From positions 198,762-262,761 of the IMG/VR virus record IMGVR_UViG_3300020429_000529: a stretch of 64,000 nucleotides of DNA. One strand, 5' to 3'. Source of the DNA: a virus. The notes beneath the pieces were generated by a model that was given only the letters and a program-made list of their open reading frames with translations, did no database searches and was not told the origin of the DNA. Within the stretch, counting starts at the first letter, position 1, and the number at the start of each line of letters is the position of its first letter. Positions 3,032 to 48,443 of this stretch are shown here, piece after piece. Position numbers and translations under genes: made by a program.

Positions 3032-4285
3032 ATGGCAAAGAAGAATCCAAAGCTTGATGCTCTGCGGAATCTCGCAAATCACGATCCAGATCTTGATAAG
3101 AACTCCCAGATCATTCCAAGCGGTCACTCAGAGCTTGACTTCTACATCTCTCGCGGGCTGTACGAAGATGAGCATGGACAGACAATCGAATACGATGAAG
3201 AAGTGCTGTATGGTTTTCCGAGCGGTAAGCTTGCGATGCTTTATGGCGGCGAGGGTTGCGGTAAGTCATCTCTTGCGTATCGCATTGGCGGCAACGCTCA
3301 GCAGATGGGGCGAGTGGTTTTCTGGATCGACGCAGAGAACTCGTTCAGTCCTCAGTTGGCAAAGATCAACGGTCTTGATCCCGATCAGATCGCTATCCAA
3401 CGACTCTTTGACACAAACGATCCTGACAAGATCTTTGATGCCGAGACGATTCTCGACATTGTGATGGACGCCTGTAAGAAGGGCGCTGGCGTTGTTGTTC
3501 TTGACTCTGTTGCTTCGCTTGTTCCGAAGTATGTCATGGATAACCCGACAGAGAAGGATACTGTCGCTGTTCTGGCGAGAGTCCTTGGCAAGTCGCTATC
3601 CAAGATCGCAGGATATGCTGCGGCCAACGATACGCTTGTCATCTTCCTAAACCAGCTTCGAGTCAACCCAGGACAGATGTTTGGCAACCCCGAGGGTACG
3701 ACTGGCGGTAACGCTCTTCGTCACTTCGTTAGCATCACGCTCAAGATGAACAAGCTGAGCAGCAAGGAAGCGTATCACTACGTTCAAGATGATGAGGGTT
3801 CTGAAACCCTAATCGCTGGGTCAACAAACGTTTGGATCGAGAAGAATCGCTTTGCGAGTCCTCACCGAGAAGCGGTCAAGATTCCGATCTACTACCGCTA
3901 CTACTTCCCTGATGCGGAAGAGATCATCTTTGATTACGGTCGTAAGACTCGCGTGATTTCTGTCCGTAAGGGCGTTTACTCATGGAACGATATCAAGGTT
4001 GAAGGCCGAGAAGATTTCATGAGCGCCGTGAAGGCCAGCGATGCGATCGGCGGTTTGGTCGAAGCTATTCGTGAGGCAGCCGTTGAGAAGGGCATTCCGA
4101 TCCCTCCCGAGGTTGTCAACTACGAGAAGCACGTTCAGTTTGGGCAGAACAACGAGGTTCAGCAGGGCAAAGAGCCGCCTGATTTCGATCCTGACAAGGA
4201 AGCGCCCAAGCGTAAGCAGACCAAGAAGAAGACAAGCAGGATGCCCAAGGTTACTGCAGGCAGCAATGACGAAGCAGAGATATGA
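3032..4285 (+). CDS. recA: RecA-family recombinase
   Basis: Walker A is GGEGCGKSS. The motifs IDAENSF, VLDSVASLVPK, IFLNQLR and MFGNPEGTTGGNALRHFVSITL match the RecA core (IDAE, [37 protein letters not shown]). The ORF track starts at 3008. The ATG at 3032 has an AGGAGC ribosome-binding site. Confidence 0.85.
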   Translation: MAKKNPKLDALRNLANHDPDLDKNSQIIPSGHSELDFYISRGLYEDEHGQTIEYDEEVLYGFPSGKLAMLYGGEGCGKSSLAYRIGGNAQQMGRVVFWIDAENSFSPQLAKINGLDPDQIAIQRLFDTNDPDKIFDAETILDIVMDACKKGAGVVVLDSVASLVPKYVMDNPTEKDTVAVLARVLGKSLSKIAGYAAANDTLVIFLNQLRVNPGQMFGNPEGTTGGNALRHFVSITLKMNKLSSKEAYHYVQDDEGSETLIAGSTNVWIEKNRFASPHREAVKIPIYYRYYFPDAEEIIFDYGRKTRVISVRKGVYSWNDIKVEGREDFMSAVKASDAIGGLVEAIREAAVEKGIPIPPEVVNYEKHVQFGQNNEVQQGKEPPDFDPDKEAPKRKQTKKKTSRMPKVTAGSNDEAEI

Positions 4286-12770: not shown

Positions 12771-13515
12771 GAGTATCAACGAACTCTCGGGCGCTCACAA
12801 AGAGCAGATGGCCTTCATTCTCGGAGCGGGGCCATCTCTACATTTCCAGGACTTAGAACCGCTTCATAACTATGTCACCTTTGCTGTCAATTCTGGTCTC
12901 CTAAAGATGCCAGATTGCGATTACTTTGTGACAGATGATGGCGCTGCGGCAGATTGGAACTACTTCAGAGACACCGCCAAGAATAGCCATTGCAAGAAGC
13001 TTCTTTTCCGCGCCAAGCTAAAGAAGTCGGCATCTCACTTTCGCCAAAATGAAGTCTTCTGGTACGATCATGTCAGAGAGCATAGCCCTGACTTTGACGG
13101 AGCCAATCTGAACGGCTATGAAATGGGACCAGTCAATCCTCTCATGGCCGCAAGAACCTCAGCAGGGTCAGCGGTACATGCTGCGCACATCATGGGGTGT
13201 AGTCCGATTGTTCTTCTCGGATGCGATTCGTGTCATAAGTACGGCAAGCGATATTTCTGGCAGTTCCCCAAGGAAGAGAAAGCGTACCGAGTCAATGATT
13301 CTCGACCGCCTTGGACAAAGGCTGACAGAGGCCAGCTTAGGGGCAAGCCGGTTGACCAGCATTGCATAGATTTCGATGTCTATTGGAAGCGAGTTGCCAA
13401 GGCCAATCCTGGTGTAAACATCATCTATGCGTCAGAGGGTGGACTGATTGATGCGTTCCCGTCGATGAAGCTGACAGAAGTGTTAGCGGAATACGGCGGG
13501 CGCACCAAGCAATGA
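12727..13515 (+). CDS. GT42/DUF115 (MAF, CstII-like) putative nonulosonic-acid (sialyl) transferase, paralog 1
   Basis: An N-terminal GAGPSL motif and an LLGCDSCH motif resemble CstII GNGPSL ... LSGIDFY. It is a tandem paralog of the next gene. Confidence 0.5.
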   Translation: MLLIMAEETSSSSTKSINELSGAHKEQMAFILGAGPSLHFQDLEPLHNYVTFAVNSGLLKMPDCDYFVTDDGAAADWNYFRDTAKNSHCKKLLFRAKLKKSASHFRQNEVFWYDHVREHSPDFDGANLNGYEMGPVNPLMAARTSAGSAVHAAHIMGCSPIVLLGCDSCHKYGKRYFWQFPKEEKAYRVNDSRPPWTKADRGQLRGKPVDQHCIDFDVYWKRVAKANPGVNIIYASEGGLIDAFPSMKLTEVLAEYGGRTKQ

Positions 13516-14261
13516 ACCTCAAAGACCTCGAAGACAAGCATAAGGGCAAACTCGGGTTTGTAGTAGGAGCAGGGCCATCGCTCCATTTTCAAGATGTTGA
13601 GCCCCTTAGCAACTACGTCACAATAACCGCAAACTCGGGTATTCTCAAAATTCCAGATTGCGACTACTTCGTCAGCGATGACGAAGGCGTTCGCCATTGG
13701 AACTACTACAGAGTCACAGCCAAAAACAGTAAGTGTACCAAGCTACTGTATCGAGCCAAGCTCGGAGATCATATCGGGCACTTCAAGCCCGAAGAGGTTT
13801 TGCTCTTTGATCACAAATCCTGGTATGAGCCAAGCAAAAGGGCATGGAAAGAAGGCGGCGGAACGATGACCAAGGATGCCGAAGCACCGATTATTGGCGC
13901 TCGGACATCTCTTGCAACCGGCCTTCATTGGGCTCACATTATGGGTTGCGATCCCATCGTTCTTCTCGGGTGCGATTGCTGCTACAAGGGTCGTAACCGT
14001 TACTTCTGGCAGTTCCCTGGTGAAACCAAGGGATACCAGATGAATAACCGACCTGTCTTTTCTACTCCGAATCGAGGGTTGAAAAAGAACAAGCCGGTCG
14101 ATAATCACTGTGTTGACTTCCTTGAGTATTGGAAGAAGCTCGCCGAAGAAGCCAAAGGCGTTGCGAACATCATCTACGCATCAGAGGGCGGCATCCTTGA
14201 TGTCTTTCCTTCGATGACTCTGGTTGAGGTTCTTGAGAAGTACGGAGATAGGACCAAATGA
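13512..14261 (+). CDS. GT42/DUF115-like putative sialyltransferase, paralog 2 (tandem duplicate)
   Basis: GAGPSLHFQDVEPLSNYVTITANSGILKIPDCDYFVSDD and LLGCDCCYKG are highly similar to the preceding ORF. Confidence 0.5.
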   Translation: MNLKDLEDKHKGKLGFVVGAGPSLHFQDVEPLSNYVTITANSGILKIPDCDYFVSDDEGVRHWNYYRVTAKNSKCTKLLYRAKLGDHIGHFKPEEVLLFDHKSWYEPSKRAWKEGGGTMTKDAEAPIIGARTSLATGLHWAHIMGCDPIVLLGCDCCYKGRNRYFWQFPGETKGYQMNNRPVFSTPNRGLKKNKPVDNHCVDFLEYWKKLAEEAKGVANIIYASEGGILDVFPSMTLVEVLEKYGDRTK

Positions 14262-14962
14262 TAAACGACCGCAGAGTCCTTGCAATCATACCGGCACGAG
14301 CCGGATCTAAAGGCGTTCCTGGTAAGAACTATCAAGACCTTGCAGGCAAGCCTCTTATTTCATGGAGCATCGAGGCCGCTATCAAGAGCGAGCTTATTGA
14401 TGCTATTTGCGTCACGACCAACTGCGATGAGTGCGCGAAGATCGCCAAGCGATACGAGAAGGATCATGTTATTACGATCCGTCGTCCCGAAGATCTTTGT
14501 TCGGCTACATCAAGAACAGAAGATGCCATGTCTCATGCCGTGGCATGTCTTGGCGAGAAGTGGGGATATGTCTGTCTGCTTCAGCCAACATCTCCCGCTC
14601 GTCCTCGAAGGCTGATCGATCGGGCCATCATGAAGATGATCGATACGGAGTCGGACAGCGTTATCACGGTAACATCAGAGACGCCTTTCTTTTGGCGAGT
14701 TACTCCCGATGCTCATCAGCCCTACCCGCTGTATTCCAATATCCGCCGTCCCATGCGTCAGGATCTTGACGACTCAGAGATGTTCTATCACGACAACGGC
14801 AACTTTTACGCCGTTGAAGGAGAGTTGTTGAGAGAGTATGGACGGATTGGAAGGAAAACCGCTCTTCAGGTAACGACTAAGTATGAAAGTATGCAAATAG
14901 ATACTGAAGAAGACTTCGCTGTTATGAACTCGATGGCGGAGGTATATGGCCCCCTGATCTAA
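14258..14962 (+). CDS. neuA: acylneuraminate (CMP-nonulosonate) cytidylyltransferase
   Basis: AIIPARAGSKGVPGKNYQDLAGKPLI is the N-terminal signature of the CMP-NeuAc/CMP-Kdo synthetase family. Confidence 0.7.
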   Translation: MINDRRVLAIIPARAGSKGVPGKNYQDLAGKPLISWSIEAAIKSELIDAICVTTNCDECAKIAKRYEKDHVITIRRPEDLCSATSRTEDAMSHAVACLGEKWGYVCLLQPTSPARPRRLIDRAIMKMIDTESDSVITVTSETPFFWRVTPDAHQPYPLYSNIRRPMRQDLDDSEMFYHDNGNFYAVEGELLREYGRIGRKTALQVTTKYESMQIDTEEDFAVMNSMAEVYGPLI

Positions 14963-42973: not shown

Positions 42974-44094
42974 GCAACGATATTCTCGTAGACAAGTACC
43001 GTCCCAAGAAGCTCTCTGAGATTGTTGGGCAAGACCATGTTGTCCGCATCCTTGAGAACTCGATCAAGGAAGGCAAGTTCCATCACGCTTACATCTTTGC
43101 GGGTAACTTCGGTTGCGGCAAGACGAGCGCTGCGAGAGTCTTCGCTGCGTCTTTGAACGACCCGAAGGGCGTTACTCTTGAGCCGAATCTTGAATCAGGA
43201 TTGGTCAAGTCAATCTTCGAGGGCAAGAGCGCAGATGTCCTTGAGATCGATGCTGCTTCTGCTGGTAGCATCGACGGAGTGCGAACGCTCAAAGACAAGA
43301 TCCAGTACGCTCCTATCGAGTGCCGTTACAGATTCGTCATCCTCGACGAGGCGCATCGCTTGAGCGGAGCGGCTGCTGAAGCTGCTCTCAAGATGATCGA
43401 GGAGCCGCCGCCCGAGACCATCTTCATTCTTGCGACAACTGATCCTCAGAAGCTCAAGGACACGATTCATAGCCGCTGTCTGACGCTTCGTTTCAGCCAG
43501 GTCTCATGGGATCGAACGTTCCAGCATCTCAAGATGATTGCGGATGCTGAGGGCTTCGATTACGAAGACAATGCTTTGAGGGTTGCGGCTCGTCGCTCGA
43601 AGGGCAGTGTGAGAAACTCGCTGCAAAACCTGCAAATGGTCAAGACGTTTGCAGGAAAAGATAAGATGACAGCAGAGGGCGCTCTGCAAGCTTTGCAAGC
43701 CGTTGACGAAAGTTATTACTTCGATTTGGTCGATGCAATCTTGAAGCCCGACGCTGGCGATGCCATGCGAGTCATAGCCGATCTACTATCAGACGGTCGT
43801 GATATTGGGGAAGTTTTGAGTGGCCTTGTTGGTCATTTGAGAAACCTTCTGGTTATCAAGACATGTCCCAAAACGGATGGGCTGCTATTTCTCACCGAAG
43901 ACGAGAAGAAGAAGTATCTGCATCAAACCTCGCTTATGCCAGAGGGCAAGGCGATGGTACTGGTCGCTCACATGATCGATCTGTTGCAGAATACGAATCG
44001 AGGCATTGTCCTCAATCTCAACCCGCAAACGCTCCTGGAGAAGTTTGTGGTCGAGTCGATCTCGTTCAATGCGGCTTTGAAGAAGAGGGAATAG
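42970..44094 (+). CDS. dnaX: clamp loader ATPase (DNA polymerase III gamma/tau-like AAA+)
   Basis: Walker A GNFGCGKTSAARV, Walker B ILDEAHRL, the SRC motif (IHSRCLTLRF) and sensor 2. Confidence 0.8.
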   Translation: MSNDILVDKYRPKKLSEIVGQDHVVRILENSIKEGKFHHAYIFAGNFGCGKTSAARVFAASLNDPKGVTLEPNLESGLVKSIFEGKSADVLEIDAASAGSIDGVRTLKDKIQYAPIECRYRFVILDEAHRLSGAAAEAALKMIEEPPPETIFILATTDPQKLKDTIHSRCLTLRFSQVSWDRTFQHLKMIADAEGFDYEDNALRVAARRSKGSVRNSLQNLQMVKTFAGKDKMTAEGALQALQAVDESYYFDLVDAILKPDAGDAMRVIADLLSDGRDIGEVLSGLVGHLRNLLVIKTCPKTDGLLFLTEDEKKKYLHQTSLMPEGKAMVLVAHMIDLLQNTNRGIVLNLNPQTLLEKFVVESISFNAALKKRE

Positions 44095-44114
44095 ACAGGA
44101 ATATCTAATCGCCT

Positions 44115-44894
44115 ATGACTGAACCCCGTAAAAAGACCGGGGCACAGAAAACCGCTAAGAAGACCACAACGAAGAAGATTACGACCAAGAAGGTCGAAGT
44201 AGATGCACAAGAAGAGCAAGAAAATCAGCGGTTCGTCGAGCTTATCGAGACTGTACGAGGGTCGTCTGTTGAGACAGACATCAACAAAGCCTTCGAAGAC
44301 ATCCTCGACAAGCTCAAGCCGCGCATACAGCGCATGGTCAATCGATTCTCCATCAAGGGACTCGATTCCAGCGATGTCATGCAAGAGGCGCTCTTTGCCC
44401 TTCGGTACAAGGCCATTAAAGACTATGACGAAACCCGAGGAACAACGACTGGCGTTGCTCCCTTTGACAGATTCGCCCTTCTCTGTATTCGCAGGCACCT
44501 CTCGACCGAGTTCAAGTCGAGCTTGCAGAACAACCGCAAGAAGGTTCTCAACCAGAGCATCTCGCTCGATCAGGAGAACAAGGGCAACGACGATGAGTTG
44601 GCGCTCATCAATATCTTGCCAGCAGACGAAGGTTCCGTCTTGGAAATCATCCAGGAACAGGAATACTACCAAGATCTCATGTCCGCTCTTGTCAAGACGC
44701 TCTCTCAGTTCGAAAAGGAAGTCCTGGTGCTTTATGCCCAGCGGTTTACTTACGAAGAGATCGCAGAGAAGATCAACGAGAAGAGAGTCAAAATCAGAGT
44801 GAATGTCAAGGGAGTAGACAACGCTTTATCAAGAGTGAAAAACAAAGCTAAAGCGATTTTTGCCCAGTACGAACAAGACAATCCCGAAGACTGA
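44115..44894 (+). CDS. sigma-70-family RNA polymerase sigma factor
   Basis: Region 2-like DVMQEALFALRYKAIKDYD and a region 4-like HTH (LSQFEKEVLVLYAQRFTYEEIAEKINEKRVKIRVNVKGVDNALSRV). Confidence 0.6.
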   Translation: MTEPRKKTGAQKTAKKTTTKKITTKKVEVDAQEEQENQRFVELIETVRGSSVETDINKAFEDILDKLKPRIQRMVNRFSIKGLDSSDVMQEALFALRYKAIKDYDETRGTTTGVAPFDRFALLCIRRHLSTEFKSSLQNNRKKVLNQSISLDQENKGNDDELALINILPADEGSVLEIIQEQEYYQDLMSALVKTLSQFEKEVLVLYAQRFTYEEIAEKINEKRVKIRVNVKGVDNALSRVKNKAKAIFAQYEQDNPED

Positions 44895-44949
44895 CTTAGT
44901 TTTTACCCTTCCTTGAAGGATTATTGGAAGAAGGACTGTAAGGCCATGT

Positions 44950-45741
44950 ATGAAACGACTATTTCAAACATTGGATTCAGAAGATAGCTCATACTGGTTT
45001 GGCTTTACAGCAGCAGATGGCTGTCTTGTAACAGGCGGCAACCGAGTTTCATATACTCAATCAGCTAAGGATGAAGCTCATTTATCTCTGCTTGCTTCTC
45101 ATTTCAATCGTCCGCTGTATAGAGGCTCAACGAAGCTGGGAGAGAATACGCATCATTCAGTTAGCTTGCAAATCAACGGACGAGAAACATGGGACGATTT
45201 GTACGAAAAAGGTATGCGTCCGAGAAAATCATTGACCGCAATGAGAGGCGTGATAAGCTCTGTACCTACTGATATGACCCATCATTTTGTTCGAGGGTAC
45301 TTTGATGGGGACGGTTCAATAACAAGCAATAGACTCACAACAGTTGCGAGTTTTGTTGGATCACATGACTTTCTTGAGGAACTGAAACAGGCGATTTTGA
45401 ATCATGTTCCTCTCAATGATAACAAGGTCATTCCTGATGGCACGATTCATAAGGTAGGCTGGTCTGGTAAACAGCAATTGAATCTTTTCCGAGATTGGCT
45501 GTATAGAGATGCAACGGTATTCTTAGCCAGGAAGAAGAATAGATTTGATGCCTTGCGAAGTCGAAAGTATCGAGGAGTTTCTTGGATCAAGAAGCGAAAC
45601 AAGTGGCAATCGATGATAACCATTGATAAGAAGCCGATGTTTCTTGGATACTTTGATTCCGAAGAAGATGCAGCAAAGGCATATGACGAGCAGATTATCA
45701 ATCACGGGCTTGCTCTTCACAGATTGAACTTTCAGCGGTGA
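44950..45741 (+). mobile_element. free-standing LAGLIDADG-family homing endonuclease with a C-terminal AP2 DNA-binding domain
   Basis: Two dodecapeptide motifs (YWFGFTAADGC and VRGYFDGDGSI). The C-terminal YRGVSWIKKRNKWQSMITIDKKPMFLGYFDSEEDAAKAYD matches the AP2 domain. It has its own ATG and is flanked by a duplicated target. Confidence 0.7.
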
Positions 45742-45769
45742 AAGTTGACCGAGAAGAGGTAGAAAGAGC

Positions 45770-45832
45770 CGAGTTAAGAACAAGGCGAAAGCCATTTTTG
45801 CTCAGTACGAGCAAGACAATCCCGAAGATTGA
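45770..45832 (+). pseudogene. orphan duplicate of the last 20 codons plus stop of the sigma factor gene, recoded synonymously
   Basis: 45770..45832 encodes RVKNKAKAIFAQYEQDNPED*, identical in protein to 44832..44894. It has 9 nucleotide differences over 63 nt, all at synonymous positions. There is an in-frame TGA 8 codons upstream, so it is not part of an intact ORF. Confidence 0.6.
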
Positions 45833-45853
45833 TGAAGCATTGGAGGACAACCG

Positions 45854-47212
45854 ATGAAGTTTCGAGCCGCAGTAAAGGATTTCACCGAGGGATTGAACTC
45901 GGCGATTTCTGTCGCAACAAAGGGCGTCGTCAAAGAGCATCCGCTCGCATTCCTGGTGACGCTCGCCGCTGAAGATGATGAGATCATTGCCCTGTCGCAC
46001 GGCGGACGCATGAGCATCCGTTCGTACATCTCTGATCGCCATGGTTGCGATGATCTGAGATACGACTGCGAAGACAAGGGTCATTGCACCGTTCGCGCCT
46101 CTGATCTGAAGGCGACCCTTTCTTCGTTCGATGAGAGCGATGAGATCTGGGTCGAGCTTCGGACCTACGATGAGCCGCAGGACGGCGATGATGGCGATGA
46201 TGGAGACACCGACGCTCCGAACGCTGAGAAAGACTCGGGACGAGAGCTTGTCCTCACGCTCGTCAATGATCCCGAGCAGTTCCAGACCATGCCGACCTAC
46301 CGCGAGACGATAGAGATCCCGCAGTACGTCAACGACATCATGGAGACTAAGAGCGACGATGATGCGCTCCAAGTCCGCAGAGACATCTTTATCAGCGGCG
46401 CGAACAGAGTCTTCTTCGCTCGCGGATTCGAAGACGAGCGAGAAGCGTACAAGTATTGGAAGATCGATGCCCAGCCTGGCGAAGTTCGCTTTGCCGCCGG
46501 AAGCGGTCCTCGTTTTGCCATCCTCGACCTGTCTGGTCATGATCTAACAAAGGGCAAGGATAAGTTCGGCCTTCTGATGCCCAACGATCAGACCCCTGCG
46601 ATTCTCGATATCCTCAACCAGGCGATCGATGAATACATCAACTTCTACCCCGAAGACAAGTACCTCATCATCAAGAGCAACTCGTTCTTGGCCTACATCG
46701 CTCAGTATGACGCTGATGTGACTTGGCCTGATGTCAATATGTTCCTTGATCGTAAGAGCCCCATCAAGCTCACGACGCAGATCAAGAACTGGGCCAATGT
46801 CGTTCGAGGCATCTCCGCGACGTACAACGACGAGATGAAGAAGGCTCATGACATTCACTTTGCAACTCTGAGCATTGACTTCGAGAACTCGGACTTCATT
46901 GAAACGAAGACTGAGGGAGTCATGCGAGCCCGCCGTAAGGTTGGAGTCGATGACATTGAGATCAACGATTCCGCCAAGAGCGATGGCGCTCTGTCGATCA
47001 GTTGCGTTTCGTTCTATCTTGCCGAGGCTGTCAAGAGAGCGGCTGACGATGACCATGTTCAGGTCGAGTTTGAGTCCTCGAAGGCTCCGATTCTCTTCCG
47101 TTACCACGCTGGTTCGAAGGTCGATGAGCGAGATTTCTGGTCCGAACCCGATCAGTCTGGCATCAAGGAGCGATACTCCATCTTCTTCGCTCCCAAGAAG
47201 TCTCGTCGCTGA
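45854..47212 (+). CDS. dnaN: DnaN-like sliding clamp (beta clamp) with an acidic insertion
   Basis: The N-terminal MKFRAAVKDFTEGLNSAISVATKG...LAFLVTLAAEDDEIIALSHGGRMSIRSYI follows the DnaN pattern (MKF...L...L..V..............PIL..V.L.A....L.L.ATD.E.). Its position between the clamp-loader subunits supports the call. Confidence 0.55.
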   Translation: MKFRAAVKDFTEGLNSAISVATKGVVKEHPLAFLVTLAAEDDEIIALSHGGRMSIRSYISDRHGCDDLRYDCEDKGHCTVRASDLKATLSSFDESDEIWVELRTYDEPQDGDDGDDGDTDAPNAEKDSGRELVLTLVNDPEQFQTMPTYRETIEIPQYVNDIMETKSDDDALQVRRDIFISGANRVFFARGFEDEREAYKYWKIDAQPGEVRFAAGSGPRFAILDLSGHDLTKGKDKFGLLMPNDQTPAILDILNQAIDEYINFYPEDKYLIIKSNSFLAYIAQYDADVTWPDVNMFLDRKSPIKLTTQIKNWANVVRGISATYNDEMKKAHDIHFATLSIDFENSDFIETKTEGVMRARRKVGVDDIEINDSAKSDGALSISCVSFYLAEAVKRAADDDHVQVEFESSKAPILFRYHAGSKVDERDFWSEPDQSGIKERYSIFFAPKKSRR

Positions 47213-47238
47213 TTCTCAAGTCCATTGATTGTTCTCCG

Positions 47239-47273
47239 CCCCTGGCCGCTCTATCGGGGCGTCAGGGGTTTTT
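47239..47273 (+). terminator. hairpin followed by a T-tract downstream of the clamp gene
   Basis: CCCCTGGCC ... GGCGTCAGGGG stem followed by TTTTT. It lies immediately before the ATG at 47274. Confidence 0.4.
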
Positions 47274-48443
47274 ATGAGTAGCGACAAGAGTCATATCGCC
47301 TGGATGCACGGTAGCTATCATGCTCGTCGAGCATTGATGAATCGTTTCCGCGAGAAGTTTCAAGGCTGCGAAACGTTCAGTTGCGATAACGATGTGACGT
47401 ATGAGTTCCTTGCGGTTGAACTGCAAGAGACCGGCTGCTTCGCTGAGCAGAAGCTCGTCATTATCAATGCAATGCCAAAGTTCAAGAACTCGAACAAGGC
47501 AACGCACATCAAGAAGTTCAAGGAAGTCCTCGAAGGTCTTGATGACAATATCTTCGTGATCTTCAATGGTATCGATCCAAAGAAAGAGAAATCTCTCTTC
47601 GATCATGTCAAGAAGCTCGGAGGCAAGGTCTATGAGTTTCCCGACACCCTCGACAAGAATGCTGCGCCGAAATGGGTTAAGGATCAGCTTGAGAAGAGGG
47701 GCTACAAGATTGACTTCGAGGTTGCAGAAGCCATCGTCGAAACATGCGGGCACGATGCCGCCGTCAATGGCATTGGAGCAGACCAGCTTGAGATGGTCAT
47801 TCAGAAGCTTGCTGCATACCAGGGTGGACGCAAGCAGATCACTCTTGAATCTGTAGAAGCGACTGCATCATCGGTTGAGAACTTCATCATCTGGGATCTG
47901 CTGAATGCGATTGATGCCAAGGACTACGAACGCTGTATCAATATGATCTCGAAGGCATATCTGGTAGACAACAACGTTCCTGTTGCGGTCAGCCAGATGC
48001 TCTCTACGTTGTATTGGAAGTTCCGTCTTCTATGGCTGCTCAAAGACAGAGCCGCAAATGAGGATATGACCGCTGCTGCCAAGACTGCTTTGCAGATGCC
48101 GAAGCTCAAGGGCTCGGGATCCGGCTATTCTCGCAAGATGGAAAAGCAGATCAACCAAAGCGGCGATAACGCCGGACAGCCTGCTCAGCAATGGAGCAAG
48201 TTTGTGGTCCAGCAGGCTATCGAAGGAGCCTATGGTCGGCAGCCTTCATTGTCTCTCTACAACAGAAGAGATCTGTATCGCATTGTGAGGTCTCTGCAGA
48301 CGGCGTTGATATGTCTTCGTTCAATCTCGTCTGAGAGCGAAGCATTGCTTATTGCCGATACAGTCTTTATGACGGCTTGCAACACAGCAGAAGATCAGCA
48401 AATCAGGTCGATCATGAGAACGTTTGAAGAGGCAACAGTATGA
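47274..48443 (+). CDS. holA: clamp loader delta subunit (HolA-like)
   Basis: The layout and the motif pattern KLVIINAMPKF...KEVLEGLDDNIFVIFNGID...KLGGKVYEFP...WVKDQLEKRGYKIDFEVAEAIVETCGHD resemble DNA pol III delta. The ORF track starts at 47229. Confidence 0.5.
   Translation: MSSDKSHIAWMHGSYHARRALMNRFREKFQGCETFSCDNDVTYEFLAVELQETGCFAEQKLVIINAMPKFKNSNKATHIKKFKEVLEGLDDNIFVIFNGIDPKKEKSLFDHVKKLGGKVYEFPDTLDKNAAPKWVKDQLEKRGYKIDFEVAEAIVETCGHDAAVNGIGADQLEMVIQKLAAYQGGRKQITLESVEATASSVENFIIWDLLNAIDAKDYERCINMISKAYLVDNNVPVAVSQMLSTLYWKFRLLWLLKDRAANEDMTAAAKTALQMPKLKGSGSGYSRKMEKQINQSGDNAGQPAQQWSKFVVQQAIEGAYGRQPSLSLYNRRDLYRIVRSLQTALICLRSISSESEALLIADTVFMTACNTAEDQQIRSIMRTFEEATV

Follow-up and report, generated by a model that had tools for sequence, protein, structure and literature searches.

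The closest described counterparts of the element treated here are the mORF hybrid genes of fungal mitochondria, known from Allomyces macrogynus (atp6), Glomus sp. (atp6, atp9, cox2, and nad3), Rhizopus (atp9), and Mortierella (cox2) (PMC3630166). C-terminal duplications of cob and atp6 lie beside LAGLIDADG or GIY-YIG open reading frames (ORFs) in Endoconidiophora (PMC6279837). A similar arrangement is present in a marine bacteriophage of roughly 0.5 Mb (genome ~498.6 kb). The DNA analyzed, referred to as the window, is a 64,000-nucleotide (nt) stretch of this phage (positions 198,762 to 262,761 of IMG/VR record IMGVR_UViG_3300020429_000529). In the window, a free-standing LAGLIDADG homing endonuclease gene lies between two copies of the 3' end of a sigma-factor gene. 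The preferred explanation, with a probability of roughly 0.8, is that a homing cassette carrying a substitute gene tail was inserted in the 3' end of the sigma gene and that the native tail was left as a downstream orphan.

The likeness to mORF elements extends to several details. An endonuclease ORF is accompanied by a foreign C-terminal piece that completes the gene near its 3' end, while the native C-terminus remains on the downstream side. It is this native piece that agrees with an empty-site relative; the inserted one is the divergent one. One mORF reads in frame into the native piece, as does one of the related phage loci (L022, discussed below). A working gene end flanking the endonuclease together with a second, non-functional end is found both in the window and in the related locus L018. 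An orphan matching the tail of an empty-site relative is found in the comparisons of L018 with L002 and L006 and of L201 with L153, and in the window lineage only by way of codon type and of locus L118. The differences from mORF elements are these: a phage instead of a mitochondrion is the host, and a sigma-factor gene is targeted; the phage enzyme has an AP2-like DNA-binding domain; the two tails of the window are 100% identical in protein and differ only synonymously; and the phage locus is occupied in at least three lineages by enzymes just 37-40% identical to that of the window.

Among phages, one comparison is the intronless homing of the T-even group, in which free-standing endonucleases located between phage genes are considered to spread in mixed infections by double-strand-break repair, with co-conversion of flanking markers (PMC2988022). 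The T4 enzymes belong to the GIY-YIG and HNH families, are intergenic, and often cut away from their own gene, whereas the window element lies inside a coding sequence and supplies a replacement gene end; the string "duplicat" does not occur in that source (PMC2988022). Common to both are an endonuclease gene that stands free among phage genes and the spread logic of intronless homing. Bonocora et al. reportedly described, in 2011, T4 MobA and the 50-nt bypass insert of gene 60 as one mobile cassette. As is proposed for the window, the endonuclease there travels with sequence that alters its own target in an essential gene while the product is preserved. In T4, rescue is by ribosomal bypass of an untranslated insert, and in the window a second coding tail that includes a stop codon would serve this purpose. 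In Aeromonas phage Aeh1, the endonuclease gene mobE is inserted in nrdA, and the two halves of the gene product are made as separate polypeptides that assemble. This is again a free-standing endonuclease inside a phage coding sequence with function retained, but no duplication is known in Aeh1 nrdA. No phage precedent with a duplicated gene end, and no account of the mORF mode in any virus, was found in a literature search, which missed most subscription-journal papers.

The sigma-70-family gene of the window (44115..44894, plus strand, 259 amino acids [aa]) would be a hybrid, with a native body to position 44828 and a cassette tail from 44829. The initial annotation had reported that its last 63 nt (44832..44894) recur at 45770..45832 with nine differences, all synonymous, and this holds: eight differences are at third positions, one is an AGA/CGA exchange, both copies end in TGA, and both translate to RVKNKAKAIFAQYEQDNPED followed by a stop. 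The boundary of the repeat has to be moved one codon upstream, where Ser is TCA (44829-31) in one copy and AGC (45767-69) in the other. The full duplicate (44829..44894 and 45767..45832) is therefore 66 nt long, with 12 synonymous differences and 81.8% nt identity; codon meanings are identical at 22/22 codons, comprising the 21 residues SRVKNKAKAIFAQYEQDNPED and the stop. When 12 (or 9) substitutions were placed at random in 300,000 simulations, the peptide was left unchanged 0 times, and a chance origin of the peptide-preserving differences is excluded. When the window was searched against its own sequence by tblastx, the tail duplicate was the sole 100% protein-level repeat found.

By comparison of the copies and of their codon types with those of relatives, the upstream copy (44829..44894, plus strand, starting TCA AGA) is taken as the working tail. 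The downstream copy (45767..45832, plus strand, AGC CGA GTT AAG ... GAT TGA) is taken as native and as the right half of a putative homing site. It lies outside any ORF, as first described, with an in-frame TGA at 45746-48 and then no start codon before the copy. The orphan ends 21 nt before the ATG of the clamp gene, matching the position of the single tail in relatives. Stop reassignment or readthrough joining the sigma or endonuclease ORF to the orphan was considered and rejected by frame reading: past its stop, the sigma frame meets TAG after 31 codons, and the endonuclease frame meets TGA, TAG, and TAA. Base composition at third codon positions (GC3) does not separate native from imported sequence in the tails themselves (9/20 in the working tail and 10/20 in the orphan, by hand count). 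The GC3 of the sigma gene drops already from about 44790, which could reflect a co-conversion tract or local codon use.

About 95 related sigma loci from IMG/VR and metagenomes (39-76% protein identity) provide the empty-site comparison. Nearly all have one sigma tail, and the endonuclease cassette of the window is absent from them; in the closest relatives, the single tail lies 10-20 nt before ATGAAGTTT, with a Shine-Dalgarno motif between. The sliding-clamp-like gene is a conserved neighbor of sigma and follows it in most related loci, so that the ancestral position of the tail is fixed by the clamp. Because relatives hold a single tail 10-20 nt before the clamp, the 938 nt from 44829 to 45766 (plus strand) are read as an insertion. 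This cassette consists of the substitute tail, a 55-nt spacer, the endonuclease gene, and a 25-nt spacer. Position 44828 would be the last native base before the insertion, a junction placed by the L018/L002 pair and by the start of copy similarity. The insertion falls after the Leu codon and before the Ser codon of GVDNAL|SR(I/V)K, a conserved motif of sigma region 4.2. Immediately upstream, GAC AAC GCT TTA (44817..44828, plus strand), coding for D-N-A-L of this motif, probably belongs to the site recognized by the enzyme as its left half.

The polarity of the exchange is clearest at locus L018, where a 40%-identical endonuclease (P0122) lies between sigma and clamp. The L018 element is 1050 nt long (L018:3891..4940) and occupies the same junction as in the window, Leu|Ser of GVDNAL|SR(I/V)K. 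Two loci without the endonuclease, L002 and L006, are 90-91% identical to L018 in DNA, and L002 has one tail. L018 and L002 are identical over the last 48 nt upstream of the junction. After ...GAC AAT GCT CTT, the working tail of L018 diverges from the first base (TCT AGG versus native AGC CGA), with 22/57 mismatches. The orphan of L018, in turn, matches the native tail at 46/46 nt in L002 and at 45/46 nt in L006; past the matching part it is frameshifted by a 7-nt tandem duplication. Judged by these matches, the orphan of L018 is the native tail and its working tail is foreign. The initial annotation had left open which of the two copies was original and had proposed relatives lacking the endonuclease as the test; by that test the orphan most likely represents the native tail and the working tail was most likely brought in, for the window partly by analogy with L018.

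A second pair of occupied and empty alleles is formed by L201 and L153. An endonuclease of 37% identity (P0125) occupies the sigma-clamp locus of L201 and L202; L153, 99.7-99.96% identical, is empty there. Relative to L153, L201 has a 1039-nt insertion and a perfect 25-nt direct repeat flanking it (L201:2941-2965 and 4005-4029; empty L153:3147-3171), a unit made up of the final seven codons of sigma, its stop codon, and a further 4 nt. The inserted DNA is located beyond the region of the stop codon, and there are otherwise no differences for ~1.4-1.8 kb on each side. In both pairs, then, presence or absence of the endonuclease at the sigma locus goes with presence or absence of the extra tail copy. 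The sharing of this locus by 37-40%-identical enzymes, in phages whose close relatives are empty, leads us to infer that the element moves and that its endonuclease drives the movement.

The clean L201 repeat and the lack of nearby differences from L153 are also what a transposon-like target-site duplication would give, with copies identical at first and diverging later in the same genome. As an account of the window this is highly improbable. Twelve synonymous and no non-synonymous differences would require all changes to have fallen in the working copy, for which the odds at equal rates would be about 0.5^12. At L018, the orphan is identical to the tail of a 10%-divergent relative and the working tail is 39% different. 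The repeat lengths of 25, ~54, and 66 nt show no fixed size, and LAGLIDADG homing endonucleases are not transposases; they cut a target of ~20 bp site-specifically and leave 4-nt 3' overhangs.

Duplication of the tail in place, with the endonuclease gene landing later between the copies, would likewise account for two tails and finds some encouragement among relatives. L198, the closest relative (76% aa identity), lacks the endonuclease and has the tail type TCA AGA, yet its 108-nt sigma-clamp spacer (L198:915-1022) contains AGT CGA ATT and, after it, a second copy (15/16 nt) of a piece of its own tail, an internal repeat score reached by 0/1000 shuffles. A global alignment of this spacer with the 3' spacer and orphan of the window is not significant (z 1.4). 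L198 is the single case of a relative with both copies and no endonuclease, a situation that had been named in advance as contrary to homing; the second copy there is a decayed fragment, however, and is better read as endonuclease loss, so that the L198 spacer probably holds the decayed remnant of an orphan whose endonuclease had been lost by deletion. Several distant sigma homologs (P0006, P0008, P0015, P0020, P0021, and P0027) and L106 (3200 and 3299) have a second, diverged (V/I)DNA(L/I).R.K.KAK motif in frame inside a longer ORF. These second motifs, the copy at L106:3299 included, speak for duplication in place; they could be independent duplications or old cassette scars fused in frame. 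What makes duplication in place improbable for the window is that a dead copy would gather mostly non-synonymous changes, whereas 12/12 differences are synonymous, and that the Ser TCA/AGC switch is unreachable by single synonymous steps. The L018/L002 and L201/L153 pairs, moreover, gain or lack the extra tail and the endonuclease jointly, and the L198 copy, a decayed fragment after AGT CGA ATT, fits endonuclease loss.

Insertion of a cassette with its own tail is preferred, and the two tails differ in codon type at its junction. AGC CGA opens the orphan in both the window and L018, and likewise the tails of the empty-site loci L118, L133, L107, L105/L117, L106, and L002. The cassette tails of these two occupied loci begin TCN AGR, a tail type shared with other relatives that lack the endonuclease. 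Where the two tails encode the same residues, the codon family of six-fold-degenerate codons is switched in 2/2 cases in the window and 4/4 in L018; the chance of all these switches, estimated from codon frequencies, is roughly 0.01. The switches are consistent with a resistant allele traveling with the endonuclease, although they are not proof of one, and recoding plausibly protects the working tail against cleavage. Protective recoding is favored by the position of the Ser and Arg family switches, which in two cassettes fall immediately at the junction; the L201 duplicate is not recoded.

Splicing offers a further explanation of the 938 nt, which could be a self-splicing group I or group II intron joining 44828 to 45767, with the first tail copy present in it by accident. 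Introns are a common location of LAGLIDADG genes, and such splicing would yield the same protein. This reading is nonetheless extremely improbable. A permissive Rfam scan (E up to 10) of window positions 44000..46500 and L018 3700..5100 returned no intron family, in line with the intron-less homing proposed at the outset. The unspliced transcript already codes for a complete sigma factor with its own stop, and the insertion of L201 lies beyond the stop codon region. The non-coding part of the element is only 55 + 25 nt, and by eye the 5' spacer of L018 has no evident similarity to that of the window. The 5' spacer (44895..44949, plus strand), read from the sequence, extends from the sigma stop to the endonuclease start and holds AAGGA/TAAGG Shine-Dalgarno-like motifs; no RNA family matches it. 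A promoter and terminator scan of 44000..46000 gave nothing over the shuffled background. The 3' spacer (45742..45766, plus strand), which holds the TGA at 45746-48 that closes the orphan frame, resembles that of L018 (AAGT..AGGTA.AA..G|AGC CGA; by eye, with alignment A3).

The endonuclease gene itself (44950..45741, plus strand, 263 aa) is a free-standing LAGLIDADG homing endonuclease gene according to Pfam, PHROGs, alignment, AlphaFold2, and Foldseek. The first identification is upheld by a match to Pfam LAGLIDADG_3 (E 3.6e-7, 30.8 bits versus a cut-off of 22.5) and by one to PHROG 4645, "endonuclease" (E 6.3e-37). Two LAGLIDADG motifs have intact acidic residues, WFGFTAADG (D23) and VRGYFDGDG (D121), and D23, D119, and D121 are invariant in a 10-sequence alignment (A1). 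In an AlphaFold2 model (mean predicted local distance difference test score 92.1), the order alpha-beta-beta-alpha-beta-beta-alpha is present twice, as in a pseudo-dimeric fold. The best Foldseek matches of the endonuclease part in the PDB are the monomeric LAGLIDADG enzymes bI3 maturase, I-Tsp061I, I-AniI, and I-SceI (probability 1.00, template modeling score 0.5-0.6). Going by the model, the fold and catalytic residues are intact; cleavage activity and the exact target are presumed. The C-terminal domain (~residues 203-253) is AP2-like, with three strands (210-235) followed by a helix (238-251) in the model. Its Pfam AP2 match (E 8.8e-6, 26.4 bits) is under the cut-off of 33.3, and the C-terminal 50 residues match DNA-binding modules of phage HNH endonucleases in PHROGs. 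GC3 is 0.39 in the endonuclease gene and 0.54-0.66 in neighboring genes. A direct IMG/VR search for the endonuclease gave no close relative, and its relatives were reached by an alignment-based scan.

A route by which the window could have arisen can be proposed from these features. In a mixed infection, the enzyme would act on a related phage with an empty allele and cut it at the Leu|Ser junction or close by. Repair would then draw on the cassette-bearing genome, with homology provided on the left by the sigma body and on the right by the orphan tail and the clamp gene, and the substitute tail and endonuclease gene would be copied in together. The substitute tail (21 codons plus stop) would keep the sigma gene whole, and the native tail would be pushed downstream, untranslated, to just before the clamp. 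Protection of the occupied allele would be two-sided. At the left junction, TCA AGA GTG AAA replaces AGC CGA GTT AAG, a change at 6 of the first 12 nt past the junction; at the right junction, the cassette spacer precedes the orphan in place of sigma sequence. The substitute and native tails would each have served as a functional gene end in a different genome while they diverged, which would be why all 12 differences are synonymous, and would have been united recently. The orphan retains its stop codon and has no amino-acid change. The first insertion of each cassette probably came about when homologous repair operated on one side only and the right-hand end was joined illegitimately or through microhomology, which would explain the unequal repeat lengths of the three elements; at L201, the right join overlaps an ATAA common to the end of the endonuclease gene and sigma. 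Both the protective role of recoding and the repair route are presumptive parts of this scheme. The initial annotation had likewise proposed a cassette with a replacement tail, and the single tails of relatives, the two occupied/empty pairs, and the lack of detectable intron RNA all support it.

Several observations weigh against this explanation. An empty-site variant of the window's own phage was not found among 11 further contigs (ENA, NCBI, and Logan, several of them Tara Oceans assemblies), which are 99.97-100% identical over the region and all of which (11/11) have the cassette. The identity of the native copy in the window accordingly rests on the analogy with L018, on codon type, and on L118, which is slightly closer to the orphan (28/36 nt) than to the working tail (23/36 nt), a weak preference. 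The duplicate of L201 is perfect and at a different junction, and recoding is thus no constant feature. All sites of <=26 bp in the empty allele persist in occupied L201; its escape from self-cutting would be accounted for by a recognition site longer than 26 bp. L135 has a homologous endonuclease after sigma and no recognizable orphan. Finally, the tails of the window are 100% identical in protein although the tail varies among relatives, which would require a donor with the same peptide.

Related enzymes are present beside other genes, and their flanks were compared at 86 loci with related LAGLIDADG genes, using mismatched controls as background. Flank scores exceed every mismatched control at the window (113), L028 (113), L018 (73), L037 (53), and L022 (52), the L037 match being marginal (13 residues). 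Flank duplication is absent at most of the 86 loci; no duplicate was found at P0134 (L203), P0139 (L205), or L135. The flank similarity of L081 (score 85) was rejected as a homing footprint and looks like internal repeat domains of an opposite-strand gene. At L022, an endonuclease (P0128; 4820-4891) directly follows a Ro60/TROVE gene (tail 3900-3962). The L022 endonuclease ORF ends in 19 residues (IGFDTATPEILSSFIRGEI) resembling Ro60 C-termini, and the endonuclease C-terminus appears to be an orphan Ro60/TROVE tail translated in the endonuclease frame. In L019-L021, a homolog (P0127) follows Ro60, and no recognizable orphan was found. L028 is a mirror case, with a truncated gene head of ~35 codons (~1100-1240) upstream of the LAGLIDADG gene and the full gene downstream (~2140-2260); the head of the full gene is 60-70% identical to the orphan head. 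In L203, another phage with a family member, the free-standing endonuclease is preceded at a distance of a few genes by a DnaB-like helicase gene (L203:1-1148) containing an intein that has a LAGLIDADG domain of its own.

The LAGLIDADG/AP2 lineage may, as a tentative proposal held at somewhat less than even odds, represent a general class of phage elements that replace the coding ends of conserved genes with a resistant substitute, selected for the greatest synonymous divergence at the cut site, and that cycle through gain, orphan decay, and loss. If so, sigma tails would have been entered in at least three lineages, alongside a Ro60/TROVE tail and the head of one gene. Gene ends would be shuffled among huge phages, and pairs of resistant and sensitive alleles would reveal the target site directly.

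The sigma-clamp spacer also holds other genes. In distant relatives (L113, L114, L139-L141, L148, L159, L165-L167, and L189), it contains other single genes of ~190-300 aa, and one ORF type recurs across several such spacers; the spot appears to draw insertions in general. A GAGCCGA heptamer in the 51-nt spacer of L125 was considered as a cassette scar and is too short to count. Independent short assemblies (L011-L017) break at or near the cassette, with contig ends at window positions 44685, 44700 (twice), 45245, 45267, 45747, and 45878 (twice). These breaks may reflect an assembly-graph branch from co-occurring occupied and empty alleles, or merely low coverage.

By their Pfam and PHROGs matches, the genes around the element are a clamp-loader subunit, the sigma-70-family gene, the sliding-clamp-like gene, and a delta-like gene. 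The sigma protein has Pfam matches to Sigma70_r2 and r4_2, both slightly under their cut-offs, and matches PHROG 1740, "RNA polymerase sigma factor" (E 3.3e-5). Its homologs number 310, and several of the 120 listed have the Joint Genome Institute (JGI) name "sigma factor". The clamp-like gene (45854..47212, plus strand) matches PHROG 947, "DNA polymerase processivity factor" (E 4.7e-8). A search of phage GenBank DNA with window positions 43000..48000 gave no match. Elsewhere in the window, adjacent stretches at 12772-13545 and 13515-14294 share 55-60% protein identity and are apparently tandem paralogous genes.

Taken as a cassette, the element represents a known kind of element (the mORF) in a new type of host and a new target gene. 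A homing site is predicted in sigma region 4.2, GAC AAY GCN YTN | AGC CGA RTN AAG, for which natural candidate alleles exist, sensitive (AGC CGA) and resistant (TCN AGR). The compact 263-aa LAGLIDADG enzyme with its added DNA-binding domain is a possible meganuclease scaffold. For annotation, such cassettes would account for orphan coding fragments and odd intergenic spacers beside endonuclease genes in huge-phage genomes, and they advise caution, since the 3' ends of such genes may differ in history from the rest of the gene. For the biology of these phages, the locus suggests that homing endonucleases can settle in the coding sequence of an essential gene by supplying a new end for it, with neither an intron nor an intein involved.

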